The position numbers and the translations under genes were made by a program. The notes under the pieces were generated by a model. It was not told where the DNA came from and searched no databases. It saw nothing but the letters and a program-made list of their open reading frames with translations. A stretch of 64,000 nt of DNA from a bacterium (lineage in GTDB: Archaea > Nanobdellota > Nanobdellia > Pacearchaeales > GW2011-AR1), in assembly GCA_036833455.1 (NCBI GenBank), contig DAITPU010000001.1, positions 7,549-71,548 on the forward strand, in the 5' to 3' direction. Shown here one piece after another: positions 1 to 62,356 of the stretch (positions are counted from its first letter, which is position 1; every line of letters begins with the position of its first letter).

Positions 1-2900
1 TGCCGTCGTAGAATCATTCAAATCAAAAGGTAAATTCAAAACAGCCCAAGAGGTTCCATTCAACCTCCAATCTGTAATATTATAAATTAAATCTTCATCT
101 AAATCTGTTGAATTAGAAATATAAACACTCAAATTTTCAAAAGTAGTATTAGTTCCCGAAGAGGAATTTAAAATAACTATTGGAAAAGTTGGAGCGCTAT
201 TAACTTGTTCACCTAAGATAGTCAAATTAGAACTTAAAACTGAAGTTCCTTCCGAAGAAAAATTAGTTGGAGTTACCATTACTGACCAATTTTCTCCAAC
301 TGAAGTTTCTTGCGAAACAATTGTTTCGATTGATTTATTATTTAATCCAGCTTGATAAATAGCACTAATTTGTTCTGCTGAAAGTGCTTCATCAAATATC
401 ATTACTTCATCTATTGAACCATTAAAATAATTACCTGCTGCATTAAATGTAGCAAAAAGTAAATTATTGGTAGATTTCCCGACAGAAAAACTTTTACTTA
501 AAGAAAAAACATTACTTCCATCTAAATAACCTTCCCACTTACTTCCATTATAAGAATAAACTATATGGTGCCAATTTGTATCTGAAAGAGTTATTCCAGA
601 ACCAGTTCGAGGATTATCTCCTGTATAAACCCCAGAATAAAATTCAACTTGATTATTTACATACTCCCAAATTAAAGAATAAACATTATCTGTTCCAGCA
701 TCATTCCTTTTAGATAAAAGATATCTATTAGTTTGACTTAAATCGCTAGGTTTAATCCAAAGTGAAAAAGCAAAATTATTTGTTAAATTTAAAGTTCCAT
801 TATAAGGAACGGTAATATAATCCCCTCCATCAAAATTGTAACATCCTCCCACTTTACAATTTGAACTCCAAGTTGGTTTTGCAGTTGATGAAGCCAGAGT
901 TCCATTATTTCCATAAGTTGAATAATCTTTTGCCGTCGTAGAATCATTCAAATCAAAGGGCATATTCAAAACTGCCCAAGAGGTTCCATTTAATCTCCAA
1001 TCTGTAATAGTTGCATTCGTATCAGTTGAAGAAATATACGCCGTTAAATTTTCATTAGTAGTATTAGTTCCCGAAGAGGAATTTAGAATTACTGAATTTA
1101 TTATTGGATTTCTTACTAAATCCAAAATAGTCAAATTAGAACTTAAAACTGAAGTTCCTTCTAAACTTAAATCTGTGGGAGTGGATCTAACTGACCAATT
1201 TTCTCCAACTGAAGTTTCTTGCGAAACAATTGTTTCGATTGATTGATTATTTAATCCAGCTTGATAAATAGCACTAATTTGTTCTGCTGAAAGTGCTCTA
1301 TTGAAGATCATAAATTCATCAATTCTTCCTTTAAAATATTTTTCACCATTATTAGCTTGATCTGCCGCTCCTATTTGATGGCTTGTATAGGTTCCAGACC
1401 AATCAAGAGTAATATTTCCGATAGTATTATTTGCTACACGAGAACCATTAAAATAAATTTTCATTTCATTTCCATCATAAGTTACCACAAGATGATGCCA
1501 TTGATTAGTTGAAGGGAGAGAAGCCGGATTCCATGCACAAGAATATCTAGTAGTAGAACTATGTAAATCATAATATATCGTGTTTAAACTTCCCCAACTA
1601 CTTATTGCAATACCTCCATCATAATTGTTGTTAGTAAGATGTTGCCCCCCATAAAAACCAGGATAAGTGTTTTGAGACCAATTTGAAGAATTTATCCACA
1701 TCACAATTGAGTGAGGTCCTGTTTGTCTAGCTGAATCTGGAAGAGTTATTTTATCGTTACTTCCATCAAAACTATAACATCCTCCAACCTTACAATTTGA
1801 AACCCAGGTTGCTCCACTTACAGAACCATTATTACTCAATGTAGAATAATCTTTAGTTACACTAGAATTTTCTAAATCAAAGGGCATATTCATCGCTGCC
1901 CAAGAAGCACCGTTTACTCTCCAATCCGTAATCGTTGAATTTGAATTAGTTGAATTTATATATGCGGTTAAATTCTCATTAGTAGTATTAGTTCCCGAAG
2001 AGGAATTTAGAATTACTGAATTAACAGTAGGGATTCCTACAAAATTTTCATAAGGTAAAACATTTCCTGAATTGTAAAGAGTTTGAATTTCCGATAAACT
2101 TAACTCTCTATTCCAAATTGCCCATTCATCATAATCTATATTTATTACGGCCCCCCCTCCAAGCAAACCAAGATTTGCATTAACTGTAGTTGCACCGCTT
2201 GTAGTCCTATTATAAGCTGAAACTGCATTAACATAAAGTTTTACATGGCTTGAACTATTCATTGTAATAACCACATGATACCATGTGTCTGCAGAAAAAT
2301 TTACTGAAGATGAATATTGAACCCAAGTTCCACTTGGCCTATCAGTAACATAAAAAACATAATTAGCTCCATCCAATTTAGTTCCTACAAAAAAGTTTAG
2401 ATTAGCTGCATTATTTGCATATTGCCCCCAAAATGCTCCTGGATTAGAATTATTACTCCTAACCCAAAAACTATGTGTAAAAGCTGAAGTTCTACTCTGT
2501 AATGCCCCTAAAGCAAGTCCTTGGTCATTAGTATTTCTTCCTCTAATTCTTAAAGCATTATTTTCTTTTCCACTAATCCAACTATATGTAAAAATAGCAG
2601 TTCTATTATCTGAAGCATGACTATCATATGCAGTACTTCCACTTGATTCATCTAACTTCCAATAAGAAACTAATCCGTTAGTTAAATTATATGAAGGATC
2701 AACAGCCAAATCACTAACAACTCTACTCTCGTCGGCAAAACTAAAATTCAAAACAGCGTATCCTGCTATATTCATAAATGAACTAAACTCTCCTGTATCC
2801 AAACAAGAATAATTTTCAACAAAAAATTTCAAAGGCTTAACACTTTCATTTATTTCCGAATATTTTAAAATTTCTTCATTTTCAGTAATAATATACAAAT
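1..2900 (-). repeat. In-frame tandem DNA repeats of about 910-930 bp (at least 3 copies) inside the giant surface-protein gene
   Basis: Exact 27-mer tgccgtcgtagaatcattcaaatcaaa occurs at 1 and 931. The 44-mer ttctccaactgaagtttcttgcgaaacaattgtttcgattgatt occurs at 291 and 1201. tattagttcccgaagaggaattta occurs at about 150, 1062 and 1985. Each unit encodes one LamG-like module. Confidence 0.8.
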
Positions 2901-4644: not shown

Positions 4645-4719
4645 CTTTTTTCAAATAAATTAAGAAAAATGTATATTTAAACCTTATTCTTGTAGTGTAA
4701 TTACTTTATTGAAGATAAA

Positions 4720-5941: not shown

Positions 5942-7387
5942 TTAATCTAATTTAGGAATTTCTATAGAATCCCGTGAAATCTTACGGGCAACCGCAGCTT
6001 TTTTGATTTGCTCTTCCTTCTTTTTATTAAAAATTATTATTGGTCTATTGAATTTTGAATAATGTAATTTCCAAATTACATAAAATAAGATTAGAGAGAG
6101 AAGTAAAACGACAATTATCCAAGATAAAAGAGAAACAACTTCTACAGCAAAAGTATCATAACTACTTGCAGTTACATTTCCTGGAGCTAAAATACGAGTA
6201 TAGAAAAGATAATTCCCAATAGGAATATCCTTAGGCACATCTATATAAAAGACCCCATTATGAGTTCTATTTATTGCAAAATCTTCTTTTTTAATAGTAT
6301 ATTCTTTACCCTCAAAATCTACAATTTTATAAATAAACTCTATATCAAAATTTCTAAGTTCTCCCATATTAATCATGCTAACTTGTGCACGAACTCTTCC
6401 TCCGGGATTTATATATTTTTTAATAACTTCTGTTCTTATATCAAATAAAGCTCCTCTATCTTTAACATCCAAAATAATTCTTACTTGTTGTTCAAAATCT
6501 TCAGATTTGAATAAAATGTATCCAACATAAACATCAGCATAAACTCTATTAGAAATATAAATATCTAAATTTAAAGTTACATTTTCTCCTGGATAAACAA
6601 GTACATTTTTAGATTCCGGAAAAACAAAATCACTAACTCCGAAAACATAATTTTGAATTTCAAAAGAACTTGAACCATTATTTACAATAGTTAATTCTTT
6701 TTTAAAATAAGTTCCTTTATCCATCTTAAATGGAATAAAATCTGGGACAAGATAGAATGTTTTTTGTGAAGGAACGACTCCCGGAGGAGAATCCCCTCCA
6801 CCACCGCCCCCTCCTCCTGAAGGAGGAGTTGGAGGAGTTACTGAACAATCTGCAGGACAAGATGCAGCGGTTTCTCCAGGTTCACAAACTCCATTTCCAC
6901 ATACATAAACAGGAGGATCATATATTTCAACTACACTTGAATTAACCCAGTCAGAAAAAGAACTTCCAGAATAAAACTGAACAGAACATTTCCAAGCATT
7001 TCCCGAAGATAAATTTCCATTTCCTAAAACACTTGAAAAAGTACTTCCATTAACATAATTGTTACTAAAATTTTGACTAAAATTAAGAATATCCCATTTA
7101 TACCAACGAACTGAAACATTAACTTTAGTTTTAGAAGAATCAGAAATAAATGCGGAACAACTTAAATCTATATTTGATTTATTTGAACCATCTAAAGAAA
7201 CTAAATTCACATTTAAAGGATCACTTAATTTTGAAATCAAGCCTAAATCAAAAAAAAATCCTTCTATATTTGATCCAGGATTTATTATTAAATTATTATC
7301 TCCTCCTGAATTTATAGAGATTATATCTGCAGAAACAATTGAAAAAAAAATTAAAGAAAATATCCAAAAATAAAGAAATCTTTTCAT
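5942..7387 (-). CDS. Secreted surface protein with signal peptide, Cys motif CGNGVCEPGETAASCPADC, a poly-Gly/Pro linker, CARDB-like beta domains, and a C-terminal TM anchor with a basic tail
   Basis: The N-terminus is hydrophobic. It has GGGGGGGG and a PTPP linker. The C-terminus reads LLSWIIVVLLLSLILFYVIWKL followed by KKKEEQIKK. It forms an operon-like tandem with the two downstream genes. Confidence 0.5.
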   Translation of the reverse strand: MKRFLYFWIFSLIFFSIVSADIISINSGGDNNLIINPGSNIEGFFFDLGLISKLSDPLNVNLVSLDGSNKSNIDLSCSAFISDSSKTKVNVSVRWYKWDILNFSQNFSNNYVNGSTFSSVLGNGNLSSGNAWKCSVQFYSGSSFSDWVNSSVVEIYDPPVYVCGNGVCEPGETAASCPADCSVTPPTPPSGGGGGGGGDSPPGVVPSQKTFYLVPDFIPFKMDKGTYFKKELTIVNNGSSSFEIQNYVFGVSDFVFPESKNVLVYPGENVTLNLDIYISNRVYADVYVGYILFKSEDFEQQVRIILDVKDRGALFDIRTEVIKKYINPGGRVRAQVSMINMGELRNFDIEFIYKIVDFEGKEYTIKKEDFAINRTHNGVFYIDVPKDIPIGNYLFYTRILAPGNVTASSYDTFAVEVVSLLSWIIVVLLLSLILFYVIWKLHYSKFNRPIIIFNKKKEEQIKKAAVARKISRDSIEIPKLD

Positions 7388-7388
7388 T

Positions 7389-10300
7389 TTAACTTATTTT
7401 GATTTTTCCTCCGGAAGCTATATATAAAATTGAATCGATAGGGGGATATCCCATATTTTTTGTGTAAATAGTTGAATTGATCGTACAATTTCCTATTCCA
7501 GAAAAAAATAATTTATTCAAACCTAAATTCGTATTTAATGAAATTATACAAAAGTCCCCCATAGAAATATTCCAATCTCCAGAACCAGAATAAATACAAC
7601 TATCAAAGGAAAGTATTCTTTTTGTAGAACTATTAACCCAAGAAGAATTATAAGTTCCGTCGGAAGCTAAACAACTAAGAATCCAATCTTGACCTGCAGA
7701 AGTATTTTCACTAGATATATTTGCAACATTAACTTCAAAACTTTCAGAATATTCTCCAATATTTCCACTTAGATTTTCAATTCCATCCACATACCATTTA
7801 TAATGGTAGGTTAAATTCTGTTTTTCTATATCTGTCGCGTTACAATACCCTCTAAGAGTATCATTATAGTAAGAAAAAAGAGGTAAAATTAAAGAAGAAA
7901 CGATAAACGGATTTGGAGAATTTATCAAAACAGAATTTGATTGAACTCTATAATTATTATCAAAATCTTCATTAGTGGGAGTAACTCCGGCAATCCAAGT
8001 TTCACCTGGGGAAGTGTGAACATTCTCCAATATATCTAAATCTTTTGCTCCCATCCCGTACCAATATAATCTTTCAATTTCTGAAGGAGTTAAAGTCAAA
8101 TTATAAATTACAAATTCATCTAATTGACCAATAAAATACCCCCATCCTCCTGCATCTCCTCCTAAAGTCAAACTTGAAGAAGGGATTGTTCCCACCCAAC
8201 CAGATTCAACTGCCGAATTTTCTTGAACTCCATCTACATAAAGAGTAAAATTATTTTCTGGTTTATCATAAGTTAAGAGAGCATGATGCCAGTTTGTTAT
8301 TGAAGATCCATTACCATTAACTTGACTTGTATTTACTAAACTTGTTCCTAATAAACTAAATCTATCTGAAATTATAAATCTTATTTTTCCAGAACTAATT
8401 TCAAAATGAAATCCATCATATCCTCCATCATCACAAACTCCTTCCTCACACATTGCAAGAATTGTTCCAGAATCAGAATAGGTATTTATCCAAAAAGATA
8501 AACTAAAACTCTGGGCATACAAATCGAAATCATTCATAGTTGTATTTATGTAATCATTTCCATCAAAACTATAAGCTCCTCCAACCTTTCCTTCCTTAAC
8601 CCAAGTCGCTCCGTGTATACTTCCGTCGTATCCATTAAATCCATAATCCTTAACTGAAGAAGAATCATTCTTGTTAAAAGCGTATTTTATTATCTCAACA
8701 CCTCTTCCAGAGTTATCCCAATCACTAACATAAGAAACAGCATTTTCAGGATAACACTGACCAACTGAAGAACTTGTGTTTCCCGTATAAAAATTTGAAA
8801 TTTTAAGTGCATCAGTAGCAGAAATATTTCCACTATTATCCCAATCTCCGCAACATAAATGAACATTTTCATCATAACAAGATATTATTTCAACAAAAAT
8901 AGCTTGTGCTAAAAAAGAATCTTCACTATCTATCTTTCCATCTCCATTCAAATCTCCTTTCAACTGACCAGGACGACAAACAACTTCACAACTTGAACTA
9001 TCAGCATCTTCCAAATAATCAAAATGTAAAGTTAAATTATCCGTAGTAAAGTTGTAAGAGCTCGTAGTGTTTAAATAAGGAACTAAAGGGAAATAAATTC
9101 CTTTAACAGAACTATTCAACCAAGAAGAATTATCTTCTCCATCATATGCTAAACAACTTAAAATCCAGTTTTCACCTGAAGTTGTTAAAGAGCTAGAGAT
9201 ATTTGCAACATTTATCTCGGCTCCAGAAGCATGACCTCCCGCCGTAACTCCTGAACTATTTAAAACATTATTCTTATACCAAGAATAGTAATAAGTTAGC
9301 GTATCTCCATCGGCATCGGTTGCATTACAATATCCTTTAAGAGTATCAGAAGAATATCTTATCGAAGGTAAAATATTTGATTCAATAATAATTGGAGGTA
9401 CATTGCTTATAGTTAAAACAGAACTATTAACCCAAGAAGAATTTTCTAAAAAATCAGAAGCGAGGCAACTTAAAGTCCAATTCTCTTCTTTTGATGTGAT
9501 TGAACTTGAAACATTTGCAACATTTATTTCAGCTCCCGAAGAATAATTTCCTTCTTTTTTACCAGAAAGATTCAAACTTCCATTTTTATACCAAAGATAA
9601 TAATAGGTTAAATTATTATCCTCTAAATCACTTGCATTACAATATCCTTTAAGAGTATCATTCGTATAAGCTACGGAAGGAAATATTGTAGAATTTTCCA
9701 TCTCTGGAGCATTATTATAAATAAAAGGGTATGTGAGAGGATCCCCTTCATTCCAGATAAGTTCAAACTCTTCAAAATCCATAGAATAATTATCATAAAT
9801 TCCAAAATAATCTATCTTTGAACCATTTAACGAATAATCTTGTTCTGAAATTTCTTGATCTGGATTATTTATTCTTAACCCTATATGGTTTTTATAATTA
9901 GAATAATTTAAGGAATTATTCCCATTGTATTCCTGAGTTTCATTTAAAACATTTTCTTCATTAGCAATAAAAATTTTTCCAACCCCATAATCATCTCCAT
10001 AAGCTTCTCTAGAAAATCCAATTAGATTCCAAGTTCCCAATTGAACAGAATTTGTAGAAGTATAAATTCCGCTTTCCGGACCATCTGGATAAACTGCAGA
10101 TGAATTACCGCTGACTAACCTACCAGAAATAGTTCTATCTGTATTAATCCATAATCCAAAACCTACATTTAAAGAATCTTCTCCCTCTGAATTAAAACCA
10201 TCATCCAAAATCCAAATTTCTTTATCTAAAGATTCTGGAACATAAACCAAAGCTAAGTAACTAAAATGGGTTCCGGACATGACCCAAAAATTTTCTTGAC

Positions 10301-10622
10301 TTCCAAAATCCACATAATTTTCTCCATCAAATTGAATTGCCCCATTTACTAATCCTTCACTCCAAAGACTATCTTTTGTTAATTCTCCATTAAAATCTTC
10401 TTTTATTAAAGCATTAACTTCAATTCCTGAACTTTCATTAAATTCATAAAAAGCAACCAATTTGCTACTAGAATTCAAATAAAGAGCAGGATATGCCGGT
10501 AAATTTCTTTCCTCTCCAAAAATTCCAAAAAAACTTCCTCCATAAGAAGGATTAATTATAAAAAAAAATATTCCCAAGACAGAAATTATTCCTAAAACAA
10601 AAAGTAAAATTTTTTTTTTCAT
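7389..10622 (-). CDS. 1077-aa secreted surface protein with an N-terminal LamG-like domain, three PKD-like repeats, a canonical dockerin, a second LamG-like domain and a fourth PKD-like repeat
   Basis: It has a signal peptide. The dockerin has two Ca-binding loops, DLNGDGKIDSED and DWDNSGNISATD, each followed by a helix. The LamG-like motif is WHHALLTYDKPENNFTLYVDG...LDEFVIYNLTLTPSEIERLY. A roughly 80-aa unit YSSDTLKGYCNATD...NWILSCLA.D is repeated three times, with a fourth copy near the C-terminus. NxS/T sequons are very frequent. Confidence 0.7.
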   Translation of the reverse strand: MKKKILLFVLGIISVLGIFFFIINPSYGGSFFGIFGEERNLPAYPALYLNSSSKLVAFYEFNESSGIEVNALIKEDFNGELTKDSLWSEGLVNGAIQFDGENYVDFGSQENFWVMSGTHFSYLALVYVPESLDKEIWILDDGFNSEGEDSLNVGFGLWINTDRTISGRLVSGNSSAVYPDGPESGIYTSTNSVQLGTWNLIGFSREAYGDDYGVGKIFIANEENVLNETQEYNGNNSLNYSNYKNHIGLRINNPDQEISEQDYSLNGSKIDYFGIYDNYSMDFEEFELIWNEGDPLTYPFIYNNAPEMENSTIFPSVAYTNDTLKGYCNASDLEDNNLTYYYLWYKNGSLNLSGKKEGNYSSGAEINVANVSSSITSKEENWTLSCLASDFLENSSWVNSSVLTISNVPPIIIESNILPSIRYSSDTLKGYCNATDADGDTLTYYYSWYKNNVLNSSGVTAGGHASGAEINVANISSSLTTSGENWILSCLAYDGEDNSSWLNSSVKGIYFPLVPYLNTTSSYNFTTDNLTLHFDYLEDADSSSCEVVCRPGQLKGDLNGDGKIDSEDSFLAQAIFVEIISCYDENVHLCCGDWDNSGNISATDALKISNFYTGNTSSSVGQCYPENAVSYVSDWDNSGRGVEIIKYAFNKNDSSSVKDYGFNGYDGSIHGATWVKEGKVGGAYSFDGNDYINTTMNDFDLYAQSFSLSFWINTYSDSGTILAMCEEGVCDDGGYDGFHFEISSGKIRFIISDRFSLLGTSLVNTSQVNGNGSSITNWHHALLTYDKPENNFTLYVDGVQENSAVESGWVGTIPSSSLTLGGDAGGWGYFIGQLDEFVIYNLTLTPSEIERLYWYGMGAKDLDILENVHTSPGETWIAGVTPTNEDFDNNYRVQSNSVLINSPNPFIVSSLILPLFSYYNDTLRGYCNATDIEKQNLTYHYKWYVDGIENLSGNIGEYSESFEVNVANISSENTSAGQDWILSCLASDGTYNSSWVNSSTKRILSFDSCIYSGSGDWNISMGDFCIISLNTNLGLNKLFFSGIGNCTINSTIYTKNMGYPPIDSILYIASGGKIKIS

Positions 10623-13250: not shown

Positions 13251-13446
13251 CTCTTTTTAACCTTTCATAAACCAAAACTCCTACTTCTATTTTAGAGCTT
13301 TTTAGTATATAAATATTATGTTTACTTACTTTTTACTTACCGACGGAAAAAAGCCATAAAATAAAGAGGCAAATAAATTTAAATAAAAATAATTTTACTT
13401 ACAAAAAATAAAAAAGATTTTTATACTTAACTAACTAATATGTATA

Positions 13447-13773: not shown

Positions 13774-13894
13774 TGATCCTGCTGAGATTTGAACTCAGGA
13801 CCTCTGGCTCTCTTAGAAAGCTCCAAGAGATAGCAACCCTAACGAATTACTTTCTTATAAGACCAGCGCTCTAACCAGGCTGAGCTACAGGATC
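13774..13894 (-). tRNA. tRNA-Ile (anticodon UAU) with a 47-48 nt intron 3' of the anticodon; CCA not encoded
   Basis: Manual cloverleaf on the minus strand reads GATCCTG-TA-GCTC-AGCCTGGTTA-GAGC-G-CTGGT-CTTATAA-[intron GAAAG..AAGAG]-GCCAG-AGGTC-CTGAG-TTCAAAT-CTCAG-CAGGATC-A. All stems pair. Confidence 0.7.
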
Positions 13895-29908: not shown

Positions 29909-31165
29909 TTAATTTTTTTCCTCAATTAAATTAATCGCCCAATTAACAAAATCTTCATCTTTTTCAAAAGTAATTAACTCATTTTCATTAAACAAAGCAT
30001 ACATTCTTCTTTCATTTGGATTCAATCCATACCAGTCAAAATAATCATTTCTCATTTTTCTTATTGCAATCTTATTGTCTTGCATTACCCCAGAATCATT
30101 TATATTTTTTATTTCTAAGGCTGTAGAAAACTTAGTTCTACCTTGATCATAAATTGCAAAATGATTATTTTTATAACAAAGAATACTCAAATGAGTTGGC
30201 CACAAAATGTTATAACAATTAACAGAATTATTATACTCTCTCATTAAAGATAATGTTGTAATTGCCCAATCTTCACAATCCCCCATTTTTATCCTTAATA
30301 CTTCTGCAGGCGTTTGCCAATATTCTGATTTTTTAAATCTATTTTGATCAGAAATATAAGAAATTCTCATGTAATTTGCAATTACATCTAAATCTTCCCA
30401 TGTGTTATTTTTAAAATATTTTTTTAAATTATCCTCCAAATAAGATCTTGTTTCTTCTGGACGAACAAAATCTTGTATTTCAACATAATATTTTGGCCAA
30501 CGAGGATCTAAATCCATATCAAATTCCAATGTTTCATTATTATCAAAAAAATATTTTAGATCATGTATTGACCAATATTCTGCAAAAGGGAGATTTGCAT
30601 CTTTTTCAAAACAAAAATCTGTCCTTCCAAAAATATGAATCGTAGAATTTATCTTAAATTTTTGATTATACTCTTTTTCTGTTAAAAGAAAAGCCCCTTC
30701 TTGAGTGTCTCCTATAAAAAAATCATCAACATAAACTTTTCCGTTTAATTTGCAATTTGTTTTATTATCGTAAAAAAGAAAATTCATTGTTTTGATTTTT
30801 AACTGTTCTTCATAGACAATAAAATCTTGCTCCCCTTTATTAAGTAAATCTTGAGAAAAATCATAAGTAAAATTAAAAAAATTATCTTCATAAAATACTC
30901 TAAATTCAAATAAAACAACATTCGACAAATCTTCAACTAAAATAGTTATTTTACCTTCCTCGGTTACCCCCAAAGAAATATTGTTAATAAATAATTCTCC
31001 ATTCAATTTTTCCCCCGTCTCTTCTACATAAAAATTAAATGTAAAATTAGTATAGTCAGAAGGATAAATAAGGATAAATAAAAATAAAAAAATAAAAATA
31101 CTCCCCCCAAAAATTAGTATTTTTCTACACTGACCTTTATCTATTTTTGGACCTTTTTTTTTCAT
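29909..31165 (-). CDS. Membrane-anchored transglutaminase-like cysteine protease-fold protein
   Basis: N-terminal TM helix. The catalytic-core motif GDCEDWA (G.C..FA type) is followed by His and Asp candidates. Confidence 0.5.
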   Translation of the reverse strand: MKKKGPKIDKGQCRKILIFGGSIFIFLFLFILIYPSDYTNFTFNFYVEETGEKLNGELFINNISLGVTEEGKITILVEDLSNVVLFEFRVFYEDNFFNFTYDFSQDLLNKGEQDFIVYEEQLKIKTMNFLFYDNKTNCKLNGKVYVDDFFIGDTQEGAFLLTEKEYNQKFKINSTIHIFGRTDFCFEKDANLPFAEYWSIHDLKYFFDNNETLEFDMDLDPRWPKYYVEIQDFVRPEETRSYLEDNLKKYFKNNTWEDLDVIANYMRISYISDQNRFKKSEYWQTPAEVLRIKMGDCEDWAITTLSLMREYNNSVNCYNILWPTHLSILCYKNNHFAIYDQGRTKFSTALEIKNINDSGVMQDNKIAIRKMRNDYFDWYGLNPNERRMYALFNENELITFEKDEDFVNWAINLIEEKN

Positions 31166-33967: not shown

Positions 33968-34113
33968 TCCATCCACCCAGATTCGAACTGGGAACCTCTC
34001 GGGCACTGCTATGCCTTTTAGTTCTTGACTTTTAGGGTTTCATCGTATATCTTACTAGACACTCCGCCTTAGGATATCTACAGCCAAGCGCTCTGCCATT
34101 GAGCTATGGATGG
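33968..34113 (-). tRNA. tRNA-Tyr (anticodon GUA) with the archaeal/eukaryal C1-G72 pair and an intron of about 74 nt
   Basis: Cloverleaf reads CCATCCA-TA-GCTC-AATGGCA-GAGC-G-CTTGG-CTGTAGA-[intron]-CCGAG-AGGTT-CCCAG-TTCGAAT-CTGGG-TGGATGG-A. Confidence 0.7.
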
Positions 34114-34386: not shown

Positions 34387-35355
34387 TTAATTTTTTATTT
34401 TTTTAAGGAGTACTTGATTATTATCCAAAGAAAGTTCTTGCTTAGAACTTTCAACAACAATCAAAAGCTCCTCTATTTTTATTTTAGGTACCCAAATCTT
34501 TTCATAACTAACTGATAAACCGTTCCCTATTTTTATATCTTCGAATTCAGAAGATTTTATTTCGCTTGATCCAGAAAAAATACTCAATTTCCAATTTCCA
34601 GATTCAGAAAGCCCTTGATTTTTAATAGAAATGTTTATATCAAGATATTTTCCATAAAGTTCAGCACTAACTTCACTTATCTCTAAATCTGGTAAACTTG
34701 GAGAATAATAAAGCTCGTTTATTTTCAAAGGAATTTCATCTCCTATTTCTTGATTGCATTTGACTACTGGATACATAATATTTTTAGGATTATCTGAATG
34801 ATTAAAGCCTAAAACATGAAGAAGCTCATGCATTTCAACTAAAGGAAAACCACACTCAACAGATCTTAAAAGCAAAACCTCTCCTTTCAAAATAACATTA
34901 AAATTTTTTAAAGGAAGGATTTTAACTGGCCCACCCTCTCCTGCAATAAACATACTATCTTCGCTAAATTTAGATTTCTCCTCACAAAAAATACTAATTT
35001 CTTCTTCTTCTTCAACCGAATAGAATTCTAAAATAGTAGAATTTTCTAAAATTTTAAAAGCACGCTCCATATTATTTTTCTTGCTTAATATACAATCTTC
35101 AGAAATTCTATACGAAATTTCTTTAGAGGGAAACCTCATATTTGGATAAAATTGCATTTCAGAAGAAACATTTCCTAAATTAAAGCTTGGATCGCTATTT
35201 AAACTAAACTCTACCTCTTGAAAGGGAATAAACCAATAGGCCATTAATAAGATAAGGAAAAAGGTTATAATTCCTAAAGTAATCTCTTTTTTCATATACT
35301 GCATTAGTAAAATAATTATATAAACTTTCTTAAAACCCGTAACTATTAAAAACAA
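34387..35355 (-). CDS. Secreted or membrane-anchored zinc metalloprotease of the metzincin clan
   Basis: HELLHVLGFNHSD is an HExxHxxGxxH motif, followed by a Met-turn (IMYP). N-terminal TM/signal. Confidence 0.75.
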   Translation of the reverse strand: MFLIVTGFKKVYIIILLMQYMKKEITLGIITFFLILLMAYWFIPFQEVEFSLNSDPSFNLGNVSSEMQFYPNMRFPSKEISYRISEDCILSKKNNMERAFKILENSTILEFYSVEEEEEISIFCEEKSKFSEDSMFIAGEGGPVKILPLKNFNVILKGEVLLLRSVECGFPLVEMHELLHVLGFNHSDNPKNIMYPVVKCNQEIGDEIPLKINELYYSPSLPDLEISEVSAELYGKYLDINISIKNQGLSESGNWKLSIFSGSSEIKSSEFEDIKIGNGLSVSYEKIWVPKIKIEELLIVVESSKQELSLDNNQVLLKKIKN

Positions 35356-39358: not shown

Positions 39359-40465
39359 TTAGTAGTTATATATTATAGTTAAATTATAATCACTATCTTT
39401 AACACTTGCATGAGGGACTAGAATATACCCTTCGATTAATTCTATTTCTTCTTCATAAAAATTAATCCCCTTTTTATGAAAAATTTCGTCGTAAGAATTT
39501 CCTTTTAACAATTGTTCATAGTCTTCAATTGATTTCAATAAAAGTATATCCATTTTTTCACTAGAGTTGAATATAATCTTCGCATTTACAGGAGAACTAA
39601 ACCCTAATCCTTCTGAATAAAGCTCATAAGGAATATAATAATCTCTTCTTAGTTCATCTGAAAAAAAAGATTCTAATCTTCCAAAAAGACCAACCACATA
39701 ACAAACAATTCCTTCTTCATTTTCTTCACAAGAAACCCCTATTCCCAAACTTTCCCAATAAATTGGTTTTCCTGAATCCAAAATTGTAGAACGATGACTC
39801 GGGCTCTTAATCCATCCCTCCACAACATCAGAAACAAACTCTTCTTCTTGATAAAAATATGTTTGAGAAAGAACCTCTGAAAAAGACAAGTAAAAAATAT
39901 CTTTTTTTTGCAACCTTTCTCCTGGACCATAACCTTCATAAGGCTCATGAGCAAATAATTCTGTAATAATCATCTCTTCAGCATAATCTTGTGCAACTTT
40001 ATCTAAAAGAATATTCCTTCTAACTTCTTGAATTTGGTATTCATCTCTTTTTTTATTAATTAAATTAAAGATTTTATCTCTTAAGATAGTTTCATTAATT
40101 TGAGAAAGATCTAATTGAGAATAAGTTATATCTTCATTAGTTATGATAAAAGAGATATAGTAAGATAAATAATCCTCCTCTATCATATCAAAATAAATGG
40201 TATATTCCTTGCCTTCTTTATCAATCCCAACAAAAGCCAATTCTCCAGGGCCAATCTTATTTTCAGAAATTTTAATTAATCCATTATTTGTAGTTCCAAT
40301 AAATTCTTTCTCAAAATAAACAAACCCATCAATAGTAGAATTATCCTCTAGATAAAACTCTAGGGAATACTTGGCTGGAAAAATTAAAATTGCCAAAATT
40401 AATAAAAATGCCAAAATAAAAACCCCTCCAAGAAACATCAGAATATTCTGGAATTGTTTTTTCAT
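39359..40465 (-). CDS. Membrane-anchored CAP/SCP/YkwD-like domain protein
   Basis: N-terminal TM. GWIKSPSHRSTILDSGKPIYWESLGIGV resembles the W.NSPGHR.NIL...VGVG CAP signature. Confidence 0.45.
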   Translation of the reverse strand: MKKQFQNILMFLGGVFILAFLLILAILIFPAKYSLEFYLEDNSTIDGFVYFEKEFIGTTNNGLIKISENKIGPGELAFVGIDKEGKEYTIYFDMIEEDYLSYYISFIITNEDITYSQLDLSQINETILRDKIFNLINKKRDEYQIQEVRRNILLDKVAQDYAEEMIITELFAHEPYEGYGPGERLQKKDIFYLSFSEVLSQTYFYQEEEFVSDVVEGWIKSPSHRSTILDSGKPIYWESLGIGVSCEENEEGIVCYVVGLFGRLESFFSDELRRDYYIPYELYSEGLGFSSPVNAKIIFNSSEKMDILLLKSIEDYEQLLKGNSYDEIFHKKGINFYEEEIELIEGYILVPHASVKDSDYNLTIIYNY

Positions 40466-40512: not shown

Positions 40513-41565
40513 CTAACAATTACCTGCAGCTGTTGCGCCTGCTGAAGATAAAGCTTCTGCACATAATTCTGGTGCGTTATTGAAAGCACTACAAACTGAA
40601 CTCTTGAAAGCTTCAGCATTTCTTGCAGCATTAACTATAACTCCATTTATTACAAGTGTTGGCGAACCTTGAACTCCCAATGCTTGAGCTCTAGCCTTAT
40701 CTGCGTCGAACAAAGCTTGACCTTGAGTTTGAACACAACTTAAAACTGCGTCTGAATCTATTCCTAATGATTTCATAACTCTCACAGATTCTGTTTTATC
40801 ACAATCAATATCTCTTGTAGCTCCACAAGTTGGATAAATTTCATCTACAAACAAAGTAGCATAATCCCAATACTTATCAGGGGAAACAACTTGAATACAC
40901 TCTTGAATCATATTTTGTTGCTTTTCATAAGCTCCGTGCCCATCGTGATACATTACAGCTTTAAAGTTTGCGCTACCTTTTAACAAATTAGCAACTTCAG
41001 CTAATGGACTCTGAGCAGTAACACCGTAAGGACAATAAGCCCAAAGGAATAATTCAATTTCAGGTTTATCTGATTTTGGAACATCTGTACTCACAGGATT
41101 ATTATTAGAAGGACTAACTCCATTTTGATTAAAATCACTTAAATCATAAAATCCGCTAAATAAACTATTTCCATTTTTGGTAATATAAACAGGAATCACA
41201 TTACCTTCAATAACTAAAGAAACTTCATACAAATCTTTTGAATGACTTTTAATTCCTTGAACCTCATTATCATAACCTAATTGTGAAGCAACATAAGCGG
41301 AAGCAATATTTCCAACTTTATTTTTAGAAACTCCAGAAAAAACAATAAAAAGCCCAGCAACAATTATAAAAGCAATTAAAACAAAACTAGTAACTTTCCA
41401 AACATCAAGTTTTTTTTTCTTATGTGCAATTTTATGTTCTTCAGCCCTTTTTTTATCTTCACTCATTTCCTTTCTAAATAAAAAGCTTTTATAAAACTTT
41501 CCAAAAAATTCAAAAATAAAAGATTTTTTGCATTTTAATAAATAAGAAAAATTAAAAACACGCAA
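40513..41565 (-). CDS. Membrane-anchored DsbA-like thioredoxin-fold protein with a single-Cys CPYG active-site variant. GC is elevated relative to neighbours.
   Basis: N-terminal K-rich region plus TM. LFLWAYCPYGV with ...GSPTLVINGVI matches the DsbA-like fold. Locally about 40% GC versus a genome background of about 28-30%. Confidence 0.5.
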   Translation of the reverse strand: MRVFNFSYLLKCKKSFIFEFFGKFYKSFLFRKEMSEDKKRAEEHKIAHKKKKLDVWKVTSFVLIAFIIVAGLFIVFSGVSKNKVGNIASAYVASQLGYDNEVQGIKSHSKDLYEVSLVIEGNVIPVYITKNGNSLFSGFYDLSDFNQNGVSPSNNNPVSTDVPKSDKPEIELFLWAYCPYGVTAQSPLAEVANLLKGSANFKAVMYHDGHGAYEKQQNMIQECIQVVSPDKYWDYATLFVDEIYPTCGATRDIDCDKTESVRVMKSLGIDSDAVLSCVQTQGQALFDADKARAQALGVQGSPTLVINGVIVNAARNAEAFKSSVCSAFNNAPELCAEALSSAGATAAGNC

Positions 41566-56658: not shown

Positions 56659-59600
56659 TTAAATGGAAGAACACAGTTGACCTGCATAACCTGTGTTTGG
56701 ATAACCTACAAAATATCTCATTACTAAAAGAGAATCTGCAGAATTTATTGTTCCATCTCTATTAACATCCAAACAACAAATATTATTTGGAGTTGGAATA
56801 AGTTGAACAAAAACTTTGCTTATTAAAAGTGCATCTGCAGAATTTATTGCTCCATCTGCATTAGCATCTCCTATTAAAGATGAAGAAAAGCATTGTACTT
56901 CTGGGGAAAGTAAAGGATTATTTTTTTCATATTTTCCTGTATGTTGTAAATCATGCATAAACATTGGCCAATCTATCCTTGATTCATTATATAAAACACT
57001 TAAATTCCAAGCATAAATTTTAGTTTTGGGGTAGGAAGCTCCAAGAACTAAATCTAAAAAATCATCTTTATCTAAATCACTAACAATTAATCTATCTGAA
57101 GTTCCAAAAAAATAACCCGAAATTGGAGATTGAATAAAAGAACCAAATCTATCATATATTCCTAAACTAGGTCCAGAAACTATGATTTCTCTATAGTGGT
57201 CTCCATTTATATCTGCTATGATTGGGGAAGAATAACTAAAATCTCCTGTTTGAATTAAAGATTTATTAAAAATTAAATTCCCTTCATAATCAAAAGAATA
57301 AAGTATAAAATAAGGCTGTTGAATCTGTGAAACTAATGTTATTACTTCTAATTTTCCATCTCCACCTAAATCTCCTACTGAAGGACCTGAAGTAATTCCT
57401 CTGATATTTTCTTCAAAAGTATATGGCCACCCTGAAAAAATTGTTCCATTATAATTCCAAACATACAATTTAGAAAAATTTGGATCTGAAAAAATTCTCA
57501 AATCCCCCATAATAATCTCTAATTTTCCATCTCCATCTAAATCTCCTATTGCGGGAGAATTTAAAAAAGCATTTTCCGAATATTGAGGCCATCCATTAGC
57601 AATAGTCCCATTATGATGCCAAACATAAATAATACCATTATAATTTTCAAAAGAAGATGAATAATAGGGGAACCCCATTACAATTTCTGAATTTCCATCT
57701 CCATCTAAATCTCCTATTGCAGGATAGGAAATCTTATCCCACTGCATCATGAAATTTGGTTCTCCTATTTCTTGCGGCCATCCCGAAAGAGAATTACCAT
57801 AAATATCAAAAATATACACTACCTTATCGGTAGTTATAACAAAATCTCTTTTTCCATCATTATTAATATCAGCTAAGGATAAAGAAGAACTAAATTCTTC
57901 AGAATAAATACCAGAAAAATCCCAATAGTTAACAAGAGTTCCGTTATAACTAATAGCATAAATATAAATTCTGCCTAGTCCACTTATCAAAACTAAAACT
58001 TCTTCAATATTATCCCCGTTAATATCTTCTGAAGTCAATAATAAAGGACCATTACCCAAACTAGTATTTATCAAAAATGGCCAACCAGAAAGTGTTTCTC
58101 CTTCATAATTCAACAAATTTATTTGTTGATTTAATGAAGATCCGAAATAAGAATTAAAAAGTATTTCTTTATATCCATCTCTATTTAAATCTACAACAAC
58201 TGGCCAAATTTCACTTCTAATATTTGAATTTCCTTGAAATTCGACTTTTCTAGGCCATCCCTCTTTTAAGGTTAAATCTAAATAAATAGGAAAAGATATA
58301 GAAAAAGAATCAAAAAAACTACTAAAACTGAAAATCAAAAGATAATATCCTTGGTTGAAACCAGAAGTATTCCAAACTGCAAAAGAATCATTCAAAATAT
58401 TTATACCTTGATAAGAATGAGGGGTTGATCCAAAATAAGAAATATTCGAAAGATTATAATACGGATTTAAAATATTCCACTTAAGATTAATTTGATCTCC
58501 AATTCTATAAATTTCTGAAAAATCTGGATTAAGAATTTCTACGTTCTTTATTTTGAAAAATCCAAAATCTTTACTTTGAATAGAATTATTTCCATAAACA
58601 GATAATTTAAGATTATAAATTCCTTCTTTTAAAACATTGGGATCAAAATTAGAGCATAAAACACCTTCATCAACAACATTATTTCCAGAACATATTAAAT
58701 TCCAAGTATTGCTATCAGAAGAATAAAAAACAGAATAAGAATAAAAATCATCTCCTTTTGCACTACCCAAAATATTCATTTGGCCTGATGGAAGATAATC
58801 TATTTCATTTAAAGAAGCTATCAAAGGTTTACTAAAATTTAAAGAAGAACGAACATTTATTCTTCCTTGGCCTTGATCTTTAATTCCAGCTCCATTTAAA
58901 TTCTGTGCAGAATTTTTTAAAACCATTTTAATTTCTTCTGGAGACCAATCTGGATGAGCTTGCTTGATTAAAGCTACTGCTCCTGCAACATGGGGAGTAG
59001 CCATACTTGTTCCGGGAATTGAAGTGTGTTGATTATCAATACATTCTCTATCGCTCCAAGCATCATTCCATTGAGCTGCACAAATTCCTTGAGAACTAAA
59101 AAATCCATCTCCAGGAGCAACAACATCTGGTTTAGATAAGGACTTTATTTTTCCTTGAGCATCTTCCCAAAGAACCGGCCCTCTAGAAGAAAAGGACGCC
59201 ATTAAATCATTCTTATCCGAAGCACCTACACTAATTGCTTTTCTGGAAGTAGCAGGAGAACCTATAGGTCCATTCCAAAGTCCATCATTTCCTACAGCAA
59301 TTACTGCAATTACTCCTGCACTTACAACGTTATCTATAGCTTGACTAACAGGATCATCTGGATTTCCTTGACCTCCCAAACTCAAACTTATAATATCCAC
59401 ATAATCATTTTCATCTTCCAAGGGTATTCCATTGTTATTCAAATCTACTGATCTTTCAATAGCAGAAATAACATCGGAAAAATCTCCCCCTCCTGCCGAA
59501 CTTAAAACTTTAAAACCATATAATTTTGCATCTGGAGCAACACCTTTTAAAATTCCCTTTCCTGCGGCAATAGAAGCACAATGAGTTCCATGCCCATTAT

Positions 59601-60591
59601 CATCCATTGGATCAAAATCATTATTAACAAAATCATAACCTCCTAAAACTTTTTCACACTTGCCTTTTAAAAAACTAGAAGAAGTACATGATCCTAAATC
59701 AGGATGAGTATAATCAATCCCCGTATCAATAATTGCAATTTTTATTCCTTCTCCAGTTAAATTTAAAGAAGAATTATTTGGATCTGAAATTTGCCAAACC
59801 AAATCTGCTTCAACCAAAGAAACAGAATCCATTAAAAAGGCTTTTACTCTATAATTTGGAGTGACTCTTTTAATTCCAGGCATACTTTCAATTTTTTCTT
59901 TTTCTTCTTTTGTTAATTTACCAACACTAACTCCACTAAAAGAAAAATAAAATTCTTCAGAAATAATTTCTCTACTTATAGATTCCTCTTCTAATTTTGC
60001 CTTAAAATTTTCACTTGTTTGTTGTAAAATTTCTCTTTGTTTTTCAAGTTTTACACTTGCCTCTTCTTCCAAGATTTCAGAATCTTTAGAAAAAGTTTTT
60101 AAAATAAATTTAGAAACTCCTTTAGTTTGAGCTTCAGTTTCCTTTTTATAACTTACCTCTTCTTCAAGATCTGATTTTAAAACCAATAAAGGTTTCTCTT
60201 CAAATTCAACAATATATCCTTCGTATTCCCCAATATTTTCTCCCTTATTTATAGGAAAATTCTCATTTTCTCTATCAGATAAAAGAAAATCATTTTGCCC
60301 CAAAAACATATTATCCCTACTTCTATACTGAAAAGAATTAAAATCATTTTCAAAAATATTTGTTTCTTGTTCCTCAAAAAAATTATTATTTGTTAACTTA
60401 TCTTCAACTGAAATTTTTTCTTCATTTTGTTTTTCAAGAGTTTTTGCATTTTTTGCTAAACATTCAAAAAAACTTCCCTTACAATCTTCATCAACTGCTC
60501 TTCCAGTAAAAGAAACCCCAGATAAAAAAATCCCTCCAAAAAAAATTAAAATTAAGAAAAAAGAAGAATAAAGATAAATTTGTCTTTTCAT
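56659..60591 (-). CDS. 1310-aa secreted subtilisin-like (S8) serine protease with a pro-region, FG-GAP/beta-propeller repeats and a C-terminal dockerin
   Basis: Catalytic triad contexts DTGIDYTHPDL, HGTHCASIAAG and GTSMATPHVAGA. Seven or more D.[DN].DG...[ED] FG-GAP loops (DLNRDGYKEILF, ADINNDGKRDFVI, IGDLDGDGNSEIVMG and others). Dockerin: GDANADGAINSADALLISK ... LDVNRDGTINSADSLLVMR. Confidence 0.85.
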   Translation of the reverse strand: MKRQIYLYSSFFLILIFFGGIFLSGVSFTGRAVDEDCKGSFFECLAKNAKTLEKQNEEKISVEDKLTNNNFFEEQETNIFENDFNSFQYRSRDNMFLGQNDFLLSDRENENFPINKGENIGEYEGYIVEFEEKPLLVLKSDLEEEVSYKKETEAQTKGVSKFILKTFSKDSEILEEEASVKLEKQREILQQTSENFKAKLEEESISREIISEEFYFSFSGVSVGKLTKEEKEKIESMPGIKRVTPNYRVKAFLMDSVSLVEADLVWQISDPNNSSLNLTGEGIKIAIIDTGIDYTHPDLGSCTSSSFLKGKCEKVLGGYDFVNNDFDPMDDNGHGTHCASIAAGKGILKGVAPDAKLYGFKVLSSAGGGDFSDVISAIERSVDLNNNGIPLEDENDYVDIISLSLGGQGNPDDPVSQAIDNVVSAGVIAVIAVGNDGLWNGPIGSPATSRKAISVGASDKNDLMASFSSRGPVLWEDAQGKIKSLSKPDVVAPGDGFFSSQGICAAQWNDAWSDRECIDNQHTSIPGTSMATPHVAGAVALIKQAHPDWSPEEIKMVLKNSAQNLNGAGIKDQGQGRINVRSSLNFSKPLIASLNEIDYLPSGQMNILGSAKGDDFYSYSVFYSSDSNTWNLICSGNNVVDEGVLCSNFDPNVLKEGIYNLKLSVYGNNSIQSKDFGFFKIKNVEILNPDFSEIYRIGDQINLKWNILNPYYNLSNISYFGSTPHSYQGINILNDSFAVWNTSGFNQGYYLLIFSFSSFFDSFSISFPIYLDLTLKEGWPRKVEFQGNSNIRSEIWPVVVDLNRDGYKEILFNSYFGSSLNQQINLLNYEGETLSGWPFLINTSLGNGPLLLTSEDINGDNIEEVLVLISGLGRIYIYAISYNGTLVNYWDFSGIYSEEFSSSLSLADINNDGKRDFVITTDKVVYIFDIYGNSLSGWPQEIGEPNFMMQWDKISYPAIGDLDGDGNSEIVMGFPYYSSSFENYNGIIYVWHHNGTIANGWPQYSENAFLNSPAIGDLDGDGKLEIIMGDLRIFSDPNFSKLYVWNYNGTIFSGWPYTFEENIRGITSGPSVGDLGGDGKLEVITLVSQIQQPYFILYSFDYEGNLIFNKSLIQTGDFSYSSPIIADINGDHYREIIVSGPSLGIYDRFGSFIQSPISGYFFGTSDRLIVSDLDKDDFLDLVLGASYPKTKIYAWNLSVLYNESRIDWPMFMHDLQHTGKYEKNNPLLSPEVQCFSSSLIGDANADGAINSADALLISKVFVQLIPTPNNICCLDVNRDGTINSADSLLVMRYFVGYPNTGYAGQLCSSI

Positions 60592-60679: not shown

Positions 60680-61330
60680 ATGAAAAAAAGAGTTGCTGAT
60701 ATAAAAGATAAAAACAAATTTAAGCAATTTCTAAAAAGATTTTGGTTCATTGTATGGAAAGATGAATCTATCAGAGGTTGGATTTTCTCCCTTATTTTTT
60801 TATTTGTAGTTATAAAATTAATTTTTTTTCCCCTGCTCTCCTTAACAACCGGAACAAGTTTGCCTTTGGTTATTGTTGAATCTTGCTCTATGTATCATGA
60901 AGGAAACCTTTTATCAAACTTCGACACTTGGTGGAAAACTCAGGACATGAAATATTTCAAATTTAAATTGACTAAAGAAAATTGGGAAACATTTCCCATG
61001 AAAAAAGGATTCAATAAGGGAGACATCCTATTCATAACTGGTGTTAAACCAGAAAAAATAAAGGTAGGAGACATAATAATTTTTGAAGCTAATTACCGGA
61101 ATCCAATTATCCATAGAGTTATTGAAATAAACCAAAATGGAGAAAGATATACTTTTTCCACGATAGGAGATAATAATGGAGGCCAATTATCTATAGAAAA
61201 AGAAATATCTGAAGATCAAATAGTAGGAAAAGCCCAAGTAAAGTTAGCTCCTTATCTAGGTTGGATTAAATTAATTTTCTTTGAACACCTAAAACCCGAA
61301 TATGAAAGAGGTTTTTGCAAAAAATCCTGA
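60680..61330 (+). CDS. Signal peptidase I (archaeal/Sec11 type, S26B)
   Basis: TM anchor. VIVESCSMYHEG contains the Ser nucleophile box. Also IIHRV and GDNNGGQ. Confidence 0.7.
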   Translation: MKKRVADIKDKNKFKQFLKRFWFIVWKDESIRGWIFSLIFLFVVIKLIFFPLLSLTTGTSLPLVIVESCSMYHEGNLLSNFDTWWKTQDMKYFKFKLTKENWETFPMKKGFNKGDILFITGVKPEKIKVGDIIIFEANYRNPIIHRVIEINQNGERYTFSTIGDNNGGQLSIEKEISEDQIVGKAQVKLAPYLGWIKLIFFEHLKPEYERGFCKKS

Positions 61331-61686: not shown

Positions 61687-61742
61687 TTCTTAAAAAATGG
61701 CCAAAAGAAAAGTATTAAAAAGAATTACCGAATTAAATATTT

Positions 61743-62228
61743 ATGTTTGGAGATTCACTTTTTAATCGCTGCATAAATCTGATAAAAATTTGGAAACCGA
61801 AACAGAGATATAATGAAGAATTAAACTATCGTGACGATTTAAGAGATTTTTTATTTGTGGAACTAAATAAACAAAATTTCTTTTCTTTTGGACAATCCGA
61901 AAAAATAAATGTAAAAATAGAATCAAGCCGTTCTCTTTGCGATATTGCAATTGGAAGAGCAATTGGGATAGAATTAAAATTCAGTAAAAACGGAAAGATA
62001 AAAAAAGCAGAAATAGATAGATTATATGGTCAAATTGCCGGACACAAAAAAGAATATTCTCAAGGAATAATTCTTGTTTTAGTGGGAGATGTGGATGACT
62101 ATTCAGAAGCGGAAATTAGAGATAAATTAAAGGAATTAAATAGTTCTTTTAATGTTAATAGTTTAGGATTAAACAGATTTTATTTGGGTTTAGTCAATAA
62201 ATCTAATAAAAAACAAAACGTATCTTAA
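61743..62228 (+). CDS. Hypothetical protein (161 aa) with a possible PD-(D/E)xK-like motif
   Basis: CDIAIG...IGIELKF is a D..(n)..ExK pattern only. Confidence 0.25.
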   Translation: MFGDSLFNRCINLIKIWKPKQRYNEELNYRDDLRDFLFVELNKQNFFSFGQSEKINVKIESSRSLCDIAIGRAIGIELKFSKNGKIKKAEIDRLYGQIAGHKKEYSQGIILVLVGDVDDYSEAEIRDKLKELNSSFNVNSLGLNRFYLGLVNKSNKKQNVS

Positions 62229-62281
62229 AACCAAGAATTCTCTTTCAGAAGAATCTTCTTCATTTATCTTTTTCATTTGAA

Positions 62282-62356
62282 TGGCCCCGACGGGAGTTGA
62301 ACCCGCGACACCTGGATTAAGAGTCCAGTGCTCTAACCAGACTGAGCTACGGAGCC
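62282..62356 (-). tRNA. tRNA-Lys (anticodon CUU)
   Basis: Cloverleaf reads GGCTCCG-TA-GCTC-AGTCTGGTTA-GAGC-A-CTGGA-CTCTTAA-TCCAG-GTGTC-GCGGG-TTCAACT-CCCGT-CGGGGCC-A. Confidence 0.88.

Follow-up and report, generated by a model that had tools for sequence, protein, structure and literature searches.

Non-cellulosomal dockerins and cohesins are known in many archaea, in which multi-cohesin scaffoldins are generally lacking, and binding has been demonstrated for archaeal cohesin-dockerin pairs (PMC9012536). In giant proteins of ultra-small bacteria, non-cellulosomal dockerins have been read as possible adhesins (PMC10066038). For the DPANN lineages considered here, no paper on dockerins was found in the literature searched. 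How DPANN archaea and candidate phyla radiation (CPR) bacteria recognize other cells, attach to them, and feed on them is a largely unsettled question, and their reduced genomes still devote much coding capacity to huge surface proteins. Here, we analyze a stretch of 64,000 nucleotides (nt) from contig DAITPU010000001.1 (positions 7,549 to 71,548 of the forward strand; assembly GCA_036833455.1), assigned to the Pacearchaeales (GW2011-AR1) and hereafter called the window. Within it lies a gene for a subtilase of 1310 amino acids (aa) with an FG-GAP propeller and a C-terminal dockerin.

Taken as a whole, the data are best explained by a secreted subtilase zymogen that is retained by its dockerin, targeted by its propeller, and attached to a receptor shared with other dockerin proteins of the same organism. 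We assign this reading a probability of roughly 55%. The gene and the parts of its product are located as follows (window coordinates).

56659..60591, minus strand: complete gene for the pre-pro-subtilase with propeller and dockerin, 1310 aa (open reading frame [ORF] listing)
60502..60591, minus strand: signal peptide or signal anchor, aa 1-30 (hydrophobicity scan)
59842..60216, minus strand: Inhibitor I9 propeptide, aa 126-250 (Pfam PF05922)
58837..59754, minus strand: Peptidase S8 catalytic domain, aa 280-585 (Pfam, motifs, Tk-SP alignment)
59725-59727, minus strand: catalytic D289, DTG motif (motif location)
59590-59592, minus strand: catalytic H334, HGTH motif (motif location)
59287-59289, minus strand: oxyanion N435, GNDG motif (motif location)
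59005-59007, minus strand: catalytic S529, GTSMA motif (motif location)
58222..58824, minus strand: two beta-sandwich spacer domains, aa 590-790 (strands predicted in the modeled part)
56935..58221, minus strand: eight FG-GAP repeats, aa 791-1219, closing with the family-invariant WPMFMHDLQHTG motif (Ca loops, Pfam, AlphaFold model)
56671..56892, minus strand: four-cysteine type I dockerin, aa 1234-1307 (Pfam Dockerin_1, PDB dockerin matches)

An earlier interpretation, made from the sequence alone (the sequence-only reading), had placed a 1310-aa subtilase with the S8 triad at 56659-60591. The ORF occupies exactly these coordinates, and the identical protein is present on three other assemblies (samples ERZ724098, SRR6007447, and SRR6007444). 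The Peptidase_S8 profile (PF00082) matches aa 280-571 (E=3e-62), its 211 bits clearing the cut-off of 21.8. The same holds for all Pfam matches quoted for this protein, which exceed their gathering cut-offs, including those from the Peptidase_S8, FG-GAP, and Dockerin_1 hidden Markov model (HMM) searches that the sequence-only reading had proposed. The catalytic residues lie in canonical motifs and follow the Asp-His-Ser order of S8 peptidases, and D289, H334, N435, and S529 align with Tk-SP (3afg; E=6.8e-55). By motif as well as by profile, the domain classifies as S8; its active site is intact, and proteolysis and I9 autoprocessing are predicted. The Inhibitor_I9 match scores 25.9 bits against a cut-off of 21.2. 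In subtilases, the I9 propeptide serves as an intramolecular chaperone and inhibitor. The N terminus consists of a basic MKRQ start followed by a 22-residue hydrophobic stretch, in which the hydrophobicity scan marks aa 4-22 as transmembrane-like, and we infer that this signal is cleaved. No C-terminal transmembrane segment was found in the protease by the same scan. The spacer domains at aa 590-790 match no Pfam family; 79 homologues align there, with a median identity of 29%.

The region that follows the spacers scores 97.2 bits with FG-GAP (PF01839; cut-off, 22.1; E=4e-28) and 98.9 bits with FG-GAP_3 (PF13517; cut-off, 26.9; E=2.5e-28). Its Ca-loop repeats begin at aa 801, 856, 908, 961, 1017, 1074, 1127, and 1172, with a spacing of 45 to 57 residues. 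FG-GAP repeats had been recognized before, with a count of at least seven Ca loops; the repeats stand, and the count is revised from seven to eight regularly spaced copies. In an AlphaFold model of aa 740-1310, the predicted local distance difference test score (pLDDT) is about 85 to 95 across the FG-GAP repeats. The top PDB fold matches of this model are Bap1 (6mlt), followed by BBS1 and integrin alpha propellers, and the region is modeled as a closed beta-propeller, the number of eight blades being taken from repeats and strand groups rather than from model coordinates. The W and P of the WPMFMHDLQHTG motif are invariant in 33 aligned sequences.

The C-terminal dockerin claimed by the sequence-only reading passes the profile test: Dockerin_1 (PF00404) matches aa 1241-1294 with 43.7 bits against a cut-off of 22.9 (E=3.1e-11). 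Pattern matching identifies its two Ca loops as GDANADGAINSAD and LDVNRDGTINSAD. The module is in register with the type I dockerins of solved cohesin complexes (2y3n_B, 2ccl_B, and 1ohz_B) over both loops and helices, and phmmer searches against solved cellulosomal dockerins give E values from 7e-9 (2y3n_B) to 3e-7. With its duplicated Ca loop and helix and a profile score above threshold, the module is assigned as a type I dockerin. It carries four cysteines (C1234, C1272, C1273, and C1307), among which two disulfides may reasonably be expected.

This four-cysteine subtype is widespread. An exhaustive search with the 83-aa dockerin module retrieved 3768 proteins at E<=1e-3, 266 of them at <=1e-10. 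The pattern C..GDxNxDG...PxNxCCxD..DG...GxC occurs in at least 33 of the 149 top matches, often in tandem arrays, and many carriers (database proteins P0122-P0255) hold 5 to 13 tandem copies. In the literature searched, no description of the subtype was found.

The subtilase is not the only dockerin protein of the organism. A six-frame pattern scan of the window found dockerin-type loops in two genes only, and the second of these encodes a lectin-like surface protein.

7389..10622, minus strand: LamG surface protein with an internal dockerin, 1077 aa (Pfam)
8754..8990, minus strand: second dockerin, four-cysteine type, aa 545-623 of the 1077-aa protein (Pfam, BLASTP)

The dockerin of the LamG protein scores 22.9 bits, exactly the Pfam cut-off. 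It is nevertheless taken as real because BLASTP aligns it to the first dockerin with E=2e-14 and with the cysteines aligned. The sequence-only reading had described two unrelated proteins with dockerins about 47 kb apart; the second dockerin does exist, about 47.9 kb away, but is internal rather than C-terminal. Further dockerins were found outside the window. P0273, a protein of 1120 aa (locus L005, positions 10001-13363), combines Peptidase_C1 (1e-53) with its own FG-GAP propeller and a Dockerin_1 match of 30.3 bits. Its dockerin is of the same four-cysteine type as that of the subtilase, and the protein was found in two of the subtilase's samples, ERZ724098 and SRR6007447. One of its contigs measures 237,015 bp and agrees in length and source set with the longest contig that carries the subtilase. 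P0270 (452 aa) joins an SBBP/NHL-type propeller to a dockerin that is 72% identical to that of the subtilase; it was assigned to the same genome by the shared runs SRR6007447 and SRR6007444 and by similar coverage. In total, at least four proteins of one organism bear the same dockerin type: the subtilase, the LamG protein, P0273, and P0270. Their cargoes (S8 protease, C1 protease, SBBP/NHL propeller, and LamG) are in several cases unrelated and share one dockerin subtype at 35 to 72% identity. Two predicted proteases of different catalytic classes, S8 and C1, thus bear the same propeller-dockerin tail. FG-GAP_3 also co-occurs with this type of dockerin in 17 of 79 other carriers.

The presence of several dockerin proteins in one organism makes a shared receptor plausible. 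In the preferred reading, the zymogen would be exported via the Sec pathway by its N-terminal signal. As in subtilases generally, the I9 propeptide would assist folding and then inhibit the enzyme until autocleavage frees it. Since this cleavage would also cut any N-terminal membrane tether, the dockerin would be the only remaining module able to hold the mature enzyme on the surface. The FG-GAP propeller, located between protease and dockerin, may serve in ligand or substrate recognition and so select the target. The four dockerin proteins would most likely be displayed jointly on one receptor, perhaps not a canonical cohesin, and together they could form an adhesive and proteolytic surface toolkit for contacting or feeding on cells or proteins. 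In this scheme, the steps of export and autoprocessing, dockerin-based retention on the surface, and the propeller's function are predictions.

The sequence-only reading went further and took the dockerins to imply a shared cohesin-bearing anchor and, with it, a cellulosome-like surface assembly. A true cohesin-dockerin assembly would place a cohesin anchor or scaffoldin elsewhere in the genome, which would take at least the four dockerin proteins into a structure that is cellulosome-like but proteolytic and adhesive. The dockerin sequence, canonical apart from its cysteines, would suit such a partner, as would the sharing of one subtype by unrelated cargoes and the binding of archaeal cohesin-dockerin pairs (PMC9012536). 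Among the window ORFs of at least 150 aa, none matched a Pfam cohesin, in agreement with the earlier remark that no cohesin partner is evident in the window. Neither was one found in the precomputed Pfam annotations of about 55 kb of additional flanks from the same genome, including the flanks of the other dockerin genes; the ~120 kb covered includes all neighbors of the four dockerin genes. These annotations are not complete: a 995-aa protein of the same organism (L007, 4654-7641; on a 161-kb contig) holds ten NHL repeats when scanned directly (E=3.8e-107), yet has no precomputed Pfam entry. This weakens the cohesin negatives that rest only on precomputed annotations, and with ~120 kb inspected the absence of a cohesin from the genome is not established.

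Two candidates for a cohesin-bearing partner, both with genes in the window, were considered and rejected.

5942..7387, minus strand: 481-aa protein with a C-terminal membrane anchor (conserved DPANN family without Pfam annotation)
1-4650, continuing at L022 11261-20758, minus strand: giant surface protein, 3165 aa, which runs off the window start (full sequence from a sister assembly)

The 481-aa protein was the strongest anchor candidate in the window; its gene lies one base downstream of the LamG-dockerin gene. Modeling of candidate anchors, proposed earlier, was carried out on this protein and yielded an immunoglobulin (Ig)/fibronectin type III (FnIII)/ASH-like fold rather than a cohesin: pLDDT exceeds 90 over aa 207-415, the PDB matches include RbmA and ciliary ASH proteins, and no cohesin is among the top 50. 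The giant protein was considered as a scaffoldin; it contains five LamG domains and one discoidin (F5/8 type C) domain, and no cohesin or dockerin. A further lead comes from the relative P0084, whose tail after the dockerin is weakly cohesin-like (Pfam Cohesin, 18.2 bits, below the cut-off). This tail speaks for a cohesin partner; used as a search seed, it retrieved 2 proteins only and matched no solved cohesin, and no profile could be built.

In the 79 other proteins with this type of dockerin, the 25 families seen most often do not include cohesin. Archaea with such modules, moreover, generally lack multi-cohesin scaffoldins (PMC9012536). The four cargoes do not include a glycoside hydrolase. 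Of the hallmarks of a cellulosome, the organism has several dockerin-bearing subunits (four proteins); none of the four has a carbohydrate-active cargo, and no cohesin-bearing anchor was found in the ~120 kb. With no carbohydrate-active enzyme among the cargoes, "cellulosome-like" describes at best an analogy of architecture, plausible as such, with the assembly itself unproven. What is left of the earlier claim is the plausible shared receptor of the four dockerin proteins; the cohesin did not appear in the ~120 kb. We regard a genuine cohesin-based assembly as possible, at about half the weight of dockerin-based retention on a shared receptor of whatever type.

In a second, near-identical strain (Logan SRR26719225, locus L004), blastn shows 99.6 to 99.8% identity over more than 10 kb of flanks, interrupted within the subtilase gene by a variable cassette.

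56899..58719, minus strand: strain-variable cassette, codons 625-1231, covering the second spacer domain and the whole propeller (blastn against L004, codon-wise identity profile)

The counterpart of the cassette, at L004 12165-13789, is of unrelated sequence. Codons 1-624 show two synonymous differences only, in 1872 nt. Beyond the cassette, codons 1240-1310 are 97 to 99% identical at the nucleotide level, and the dockerin is 96% identical at the amino acid level. For the propeller (codons ~760-1200), identity falls to 45 to 59% (nt) and about 30% (aa). Across 114 homologues, the median identity is 54% for the protease domain and 28% for the propeller. Within the family, the propeller evolves at about twice the rate of the protease. 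Given this median, the two propeller alleles of these strains differ, at the sequence level, as much as propellers of different phyla.

The paralogous propeller of P0273 and the 120 relatives retrieved yielded no close match to either allele (34% at most). Gene conversion from the P0273 propeller was rejected as the source, with 25 to 27% identity being no nearer than that of distant relatives. A diversity-generating retroelement was also rejected, with no reverse transcriptase in the window and with divergence that is total (~1.5 kb) rather than codon-targeted. The pattern points to replacement of the cassette by recombination with an unsampled donor and not to hypermutation or a retroelement. 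The exchange would mark the propeller as a specificity module. In Nanoarchaeota, surface proteins have been reported to show raised non-synonymous diversity (PMC6142677). The two strains also differ by a small strain-specific indel: a 578-bp segment (61702-62280), which adjoins a tRNA gene (62282-62356), is absent from L004, and the ORF within it (61743..62228, 161 aa) has no family match.

The cassette also bears on a reading in which the dockerin docks to no protein of its own cell. It would then act as an EF-hand-like Ca stabilizer or bind a foreign ligand, such as a host glycan, an S-layer, or a host-encoded cohesin, and the enzyme would act on other cells. A variable propeller next to the dockerin is what a host-facing module would be expected to show. 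The arrays of 5 to 13 tandem dockerins, together with co-matching EF-hand families in 38 of the 79 carriers, resemble an adhesin array more than a plug, in line with the adhesin reading of dockerins in ultra-small bacteria (PMC10066038), and no receptor of the organism's own was found in the ~120 kb. However, the dockerin stays constant between the strains while the propeller changes, which fits a constant partner on the producing cell better. Such a ligand is hypothetical. We consider a foreign ligand or a purely stabilizing role unlikely.

The I9-S8-FG-GAP core gave 2059 matches at E<=1e-5 among the candidates scored. The family spans Woese-, Pace-, Nano-, and Aenigmatarchaeota as well as CPR bacteria (Buchanan-, Sung-, and Vogelbacteria and other Parcubacteria); in metagenome-assembled genomes (MAGs), most members bear no annotation beyond "S8 family serine peptidase." Among GTDB representative genomes, the nearest homologues are from Woesearchaeota and Nanoarchaeota MAGs (32 to 49% identity). 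A WPxFxHDxQHTG motif is conserved at the propeller end across the family. Other C-terminal modules found in some members are CARDB, LamG, PKD, and Fn3. Between DPANN archaea and CPR/Parcubacteria, the shared architecture shows 31 to 40% identity along roughly 85% of its length. Its occurrence in ultra-small symbionts of both domains of life suggests lateral transfer. In the literature searched, no experimental work on the family was found; the subtilase is a member of a large, uncharacterized, already cataloged family. Secreted proteases of such a propeller-and-dockerin build are common among ultra-small archaea and bacteria; the dockerin itself is present in only 9 of the 120 top family matches (Dockerin_1).

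That most members do without a dockerin would suit a nutritional protease that is freely released and diffuses off, its propeller only binding substrate and its dockerin having no part in retention. S8 proteases are commonly free exoenzymes, and no anchor was found in the window proteins examined. On the other hand, a diffusing enzyme would be a poor investment for an ultra-small cell. That another protease class of this organism bears the same propeller-dockerin tail argues for a selected function of the tail, and the dockerin remained near-identical through a recombination event in which the adjoining 1.8 kb were replaced. Free release is, in our judgment, highly improbable.

Several points count against retention of the subtilase on a shared receptor, the reading that we prefer. 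The ~120 kb examined, less than half of the genome, revealed neither a cohesin nor another receptor. Modeling of the dockerin, as the sequence-only reading had suggested, gave a pLDDT below 50 over this module, and few alignment rows include it; the profile-based identification holds, and the model provides neither structural confirmation of the fold nor a check of the disulfides. In most family members, an unrelated C-terminal domain of ~100 aa takes the dockerin's place, so dockerin-mediated display is not essential to the function of the family. Finally, P0270 was assigned to the organism without a closed genome.

The surroundings of the subtilase gene and the remaining content of the window are summarized below.

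60680..61330, plus strand: archaeal signal peptidase I, 216 aa, divergent, 88 bp from the protease start codon (NCBIfam TIGR02228)
5942-13250, minus strand: three surface-protein genes, operon-like, abutting by 0-1 nt (ORF layout)
40513..41565, minus strand: DsbA/thioredoxin-like secreted thiol oxidoreductase (window scan)
39359-40465, minus strand: CAP-domain protein, predicted exported/anchored
34387-35355, minus strand: M10 matrixin-like metalloprotease with CARDB, predicted exported/anchored
29909-31165, minus strand: transglutaminase-like protein, predicted exported/anchored
13774-13894: tRNA gene, 121 nt
33968-34113, minus strand: tRNA gene, 146 nt

The divergent pairing of the subtilase with signal peptidase I had been pointed out before. 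TIGR02228 bears out the identity of the neighbor at 82.9 bits (cut-off, 51.85); Pfam gives no match. The pairing is kept within the species only and is not seen beside homologues in other Woese- and Nanoarchaeota MAGs. Since it is confined to the species, it is probably incidental, and a functional link through synteny was rejected. The surface cluster at 5942-13250 includes, besides the LamG-dockerin protein and the 481-aa anchored protein with its tandem Ig/FnIII-like domains, an 875-aa fiber-like protein with repeated GNVGIGT..LHV motifs and no family match. More broadly, the window is rich in surface enzymes, and the DsbA-like protein is consistent with disulfide-bonded exoproteins. The two tRNA genes, at 121 and 146 nt far beyond the 71-position model, presumably contain introns, which are common in tRNA genes of archaea. 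The window has about 29% G+C and encodes thermosome, TFS, PolB, RFC, FEN1, Rpb7, and CDC48; the first six of these support its archaeal origin.

By itself, the protein is unremarkable within its family. It is of moderate interest for the four-cysteine dockerin subtype, the tail shared by two protease classes, and the cassette swap. For the question of how such cells interact with others, the locus supplies concrete candidates: an intact predicted protease with a recognition module exchanged between strains, and a dockerin tag shared by no fewer than four surface proteins. Discovery of its receptor would define a surface-display system in these organisms; if no receptor exists, the widespread "dockerins" require another functional explanation. 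A more far-reaching proposal, and an improbable one, is that in DPANN and CPR organisms the disulfide-stapled dockerin subtype mounts interchangeable "warheads" (serine protease, cysteine protease, and lectin or propeller adhesins) on a receptor that is not recognizable as a cohesin. Propeller swaps would then re-aim the protease at a host or substrate, in a recombination-driven system for host range or evasion of attack. If true, this would amount to a modular, recombination-driven targeting system at the symbiont-host interface.

Several parts of the subtilase can be compared to described systems. Among solved structures, Tk-SP of Thermococcus kodakarensis (3afg) comes nearest to the catalytic domain (E=6.8e-55); it shares all catalytic motifs and is likewise an archaeal pro-subtilase. 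However, its solved chain comprises 539 residues and contains neither a propeller nor a dockerin. The propeller has FG-GAP-type Ca-binding blades in common with the Vibrio cholerae biofilm adhesin Bap1 (6mlt; Foldseek E=2.7e-11) and with integrin alpha propellers (Foldseek E of about 1e-6), at low template modeling scores (0.35 to 0.41) and 12 to 14% identity. The Bap1 propeller has eight blades, in agreement with the eight repeats counted here. Unlike the 1310-aa protein, neither Bap1 nor integrin alpha is fused to a protease or dockerin.

The dockerin shares with the cellulosomal type I dockerins of Clostridium thermocellum Xyn10B (1ohz/2ccl) and of Cel48 (2y3n) the same duplicated ~22-residue Ca loop and helix (DxNxDGxIxxxD), as well as length, register, and C-terminal position on an enzyme. 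It differs by its four conserved cysteines. One precedes loop 1, a CC pair lies directly ahead of loop 2, and the fourth follows helix 2; where the CC pair aligns, the solved cellulosomal dockerins lack cysteines. In addition, the present organism is an archaeon, and the cellulosomal cargo is a glycoside hydrolase, in contrast to the protease here, for which no cohesin partner was found in the ~120 kb. The non-cellulosomal modules of Archaeoglobus fulgidus and of anaerobic methanotrophic (ANME) archaea likewise place dockerins on surface proteins with varied cargo unrelated to cellulose degradation, and mostly without a large scaffoldin (PMC9012536). In ANME archaea, some proteins join a dockerin to up to five cohesins, and the typical cargo consists of ABC-transporter binding proteins (PMC9012536). 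Here, no cohesin was seen in the ~120 kb, and the dockerins are instead attached to proteases, propellers, and a lectin-like module.

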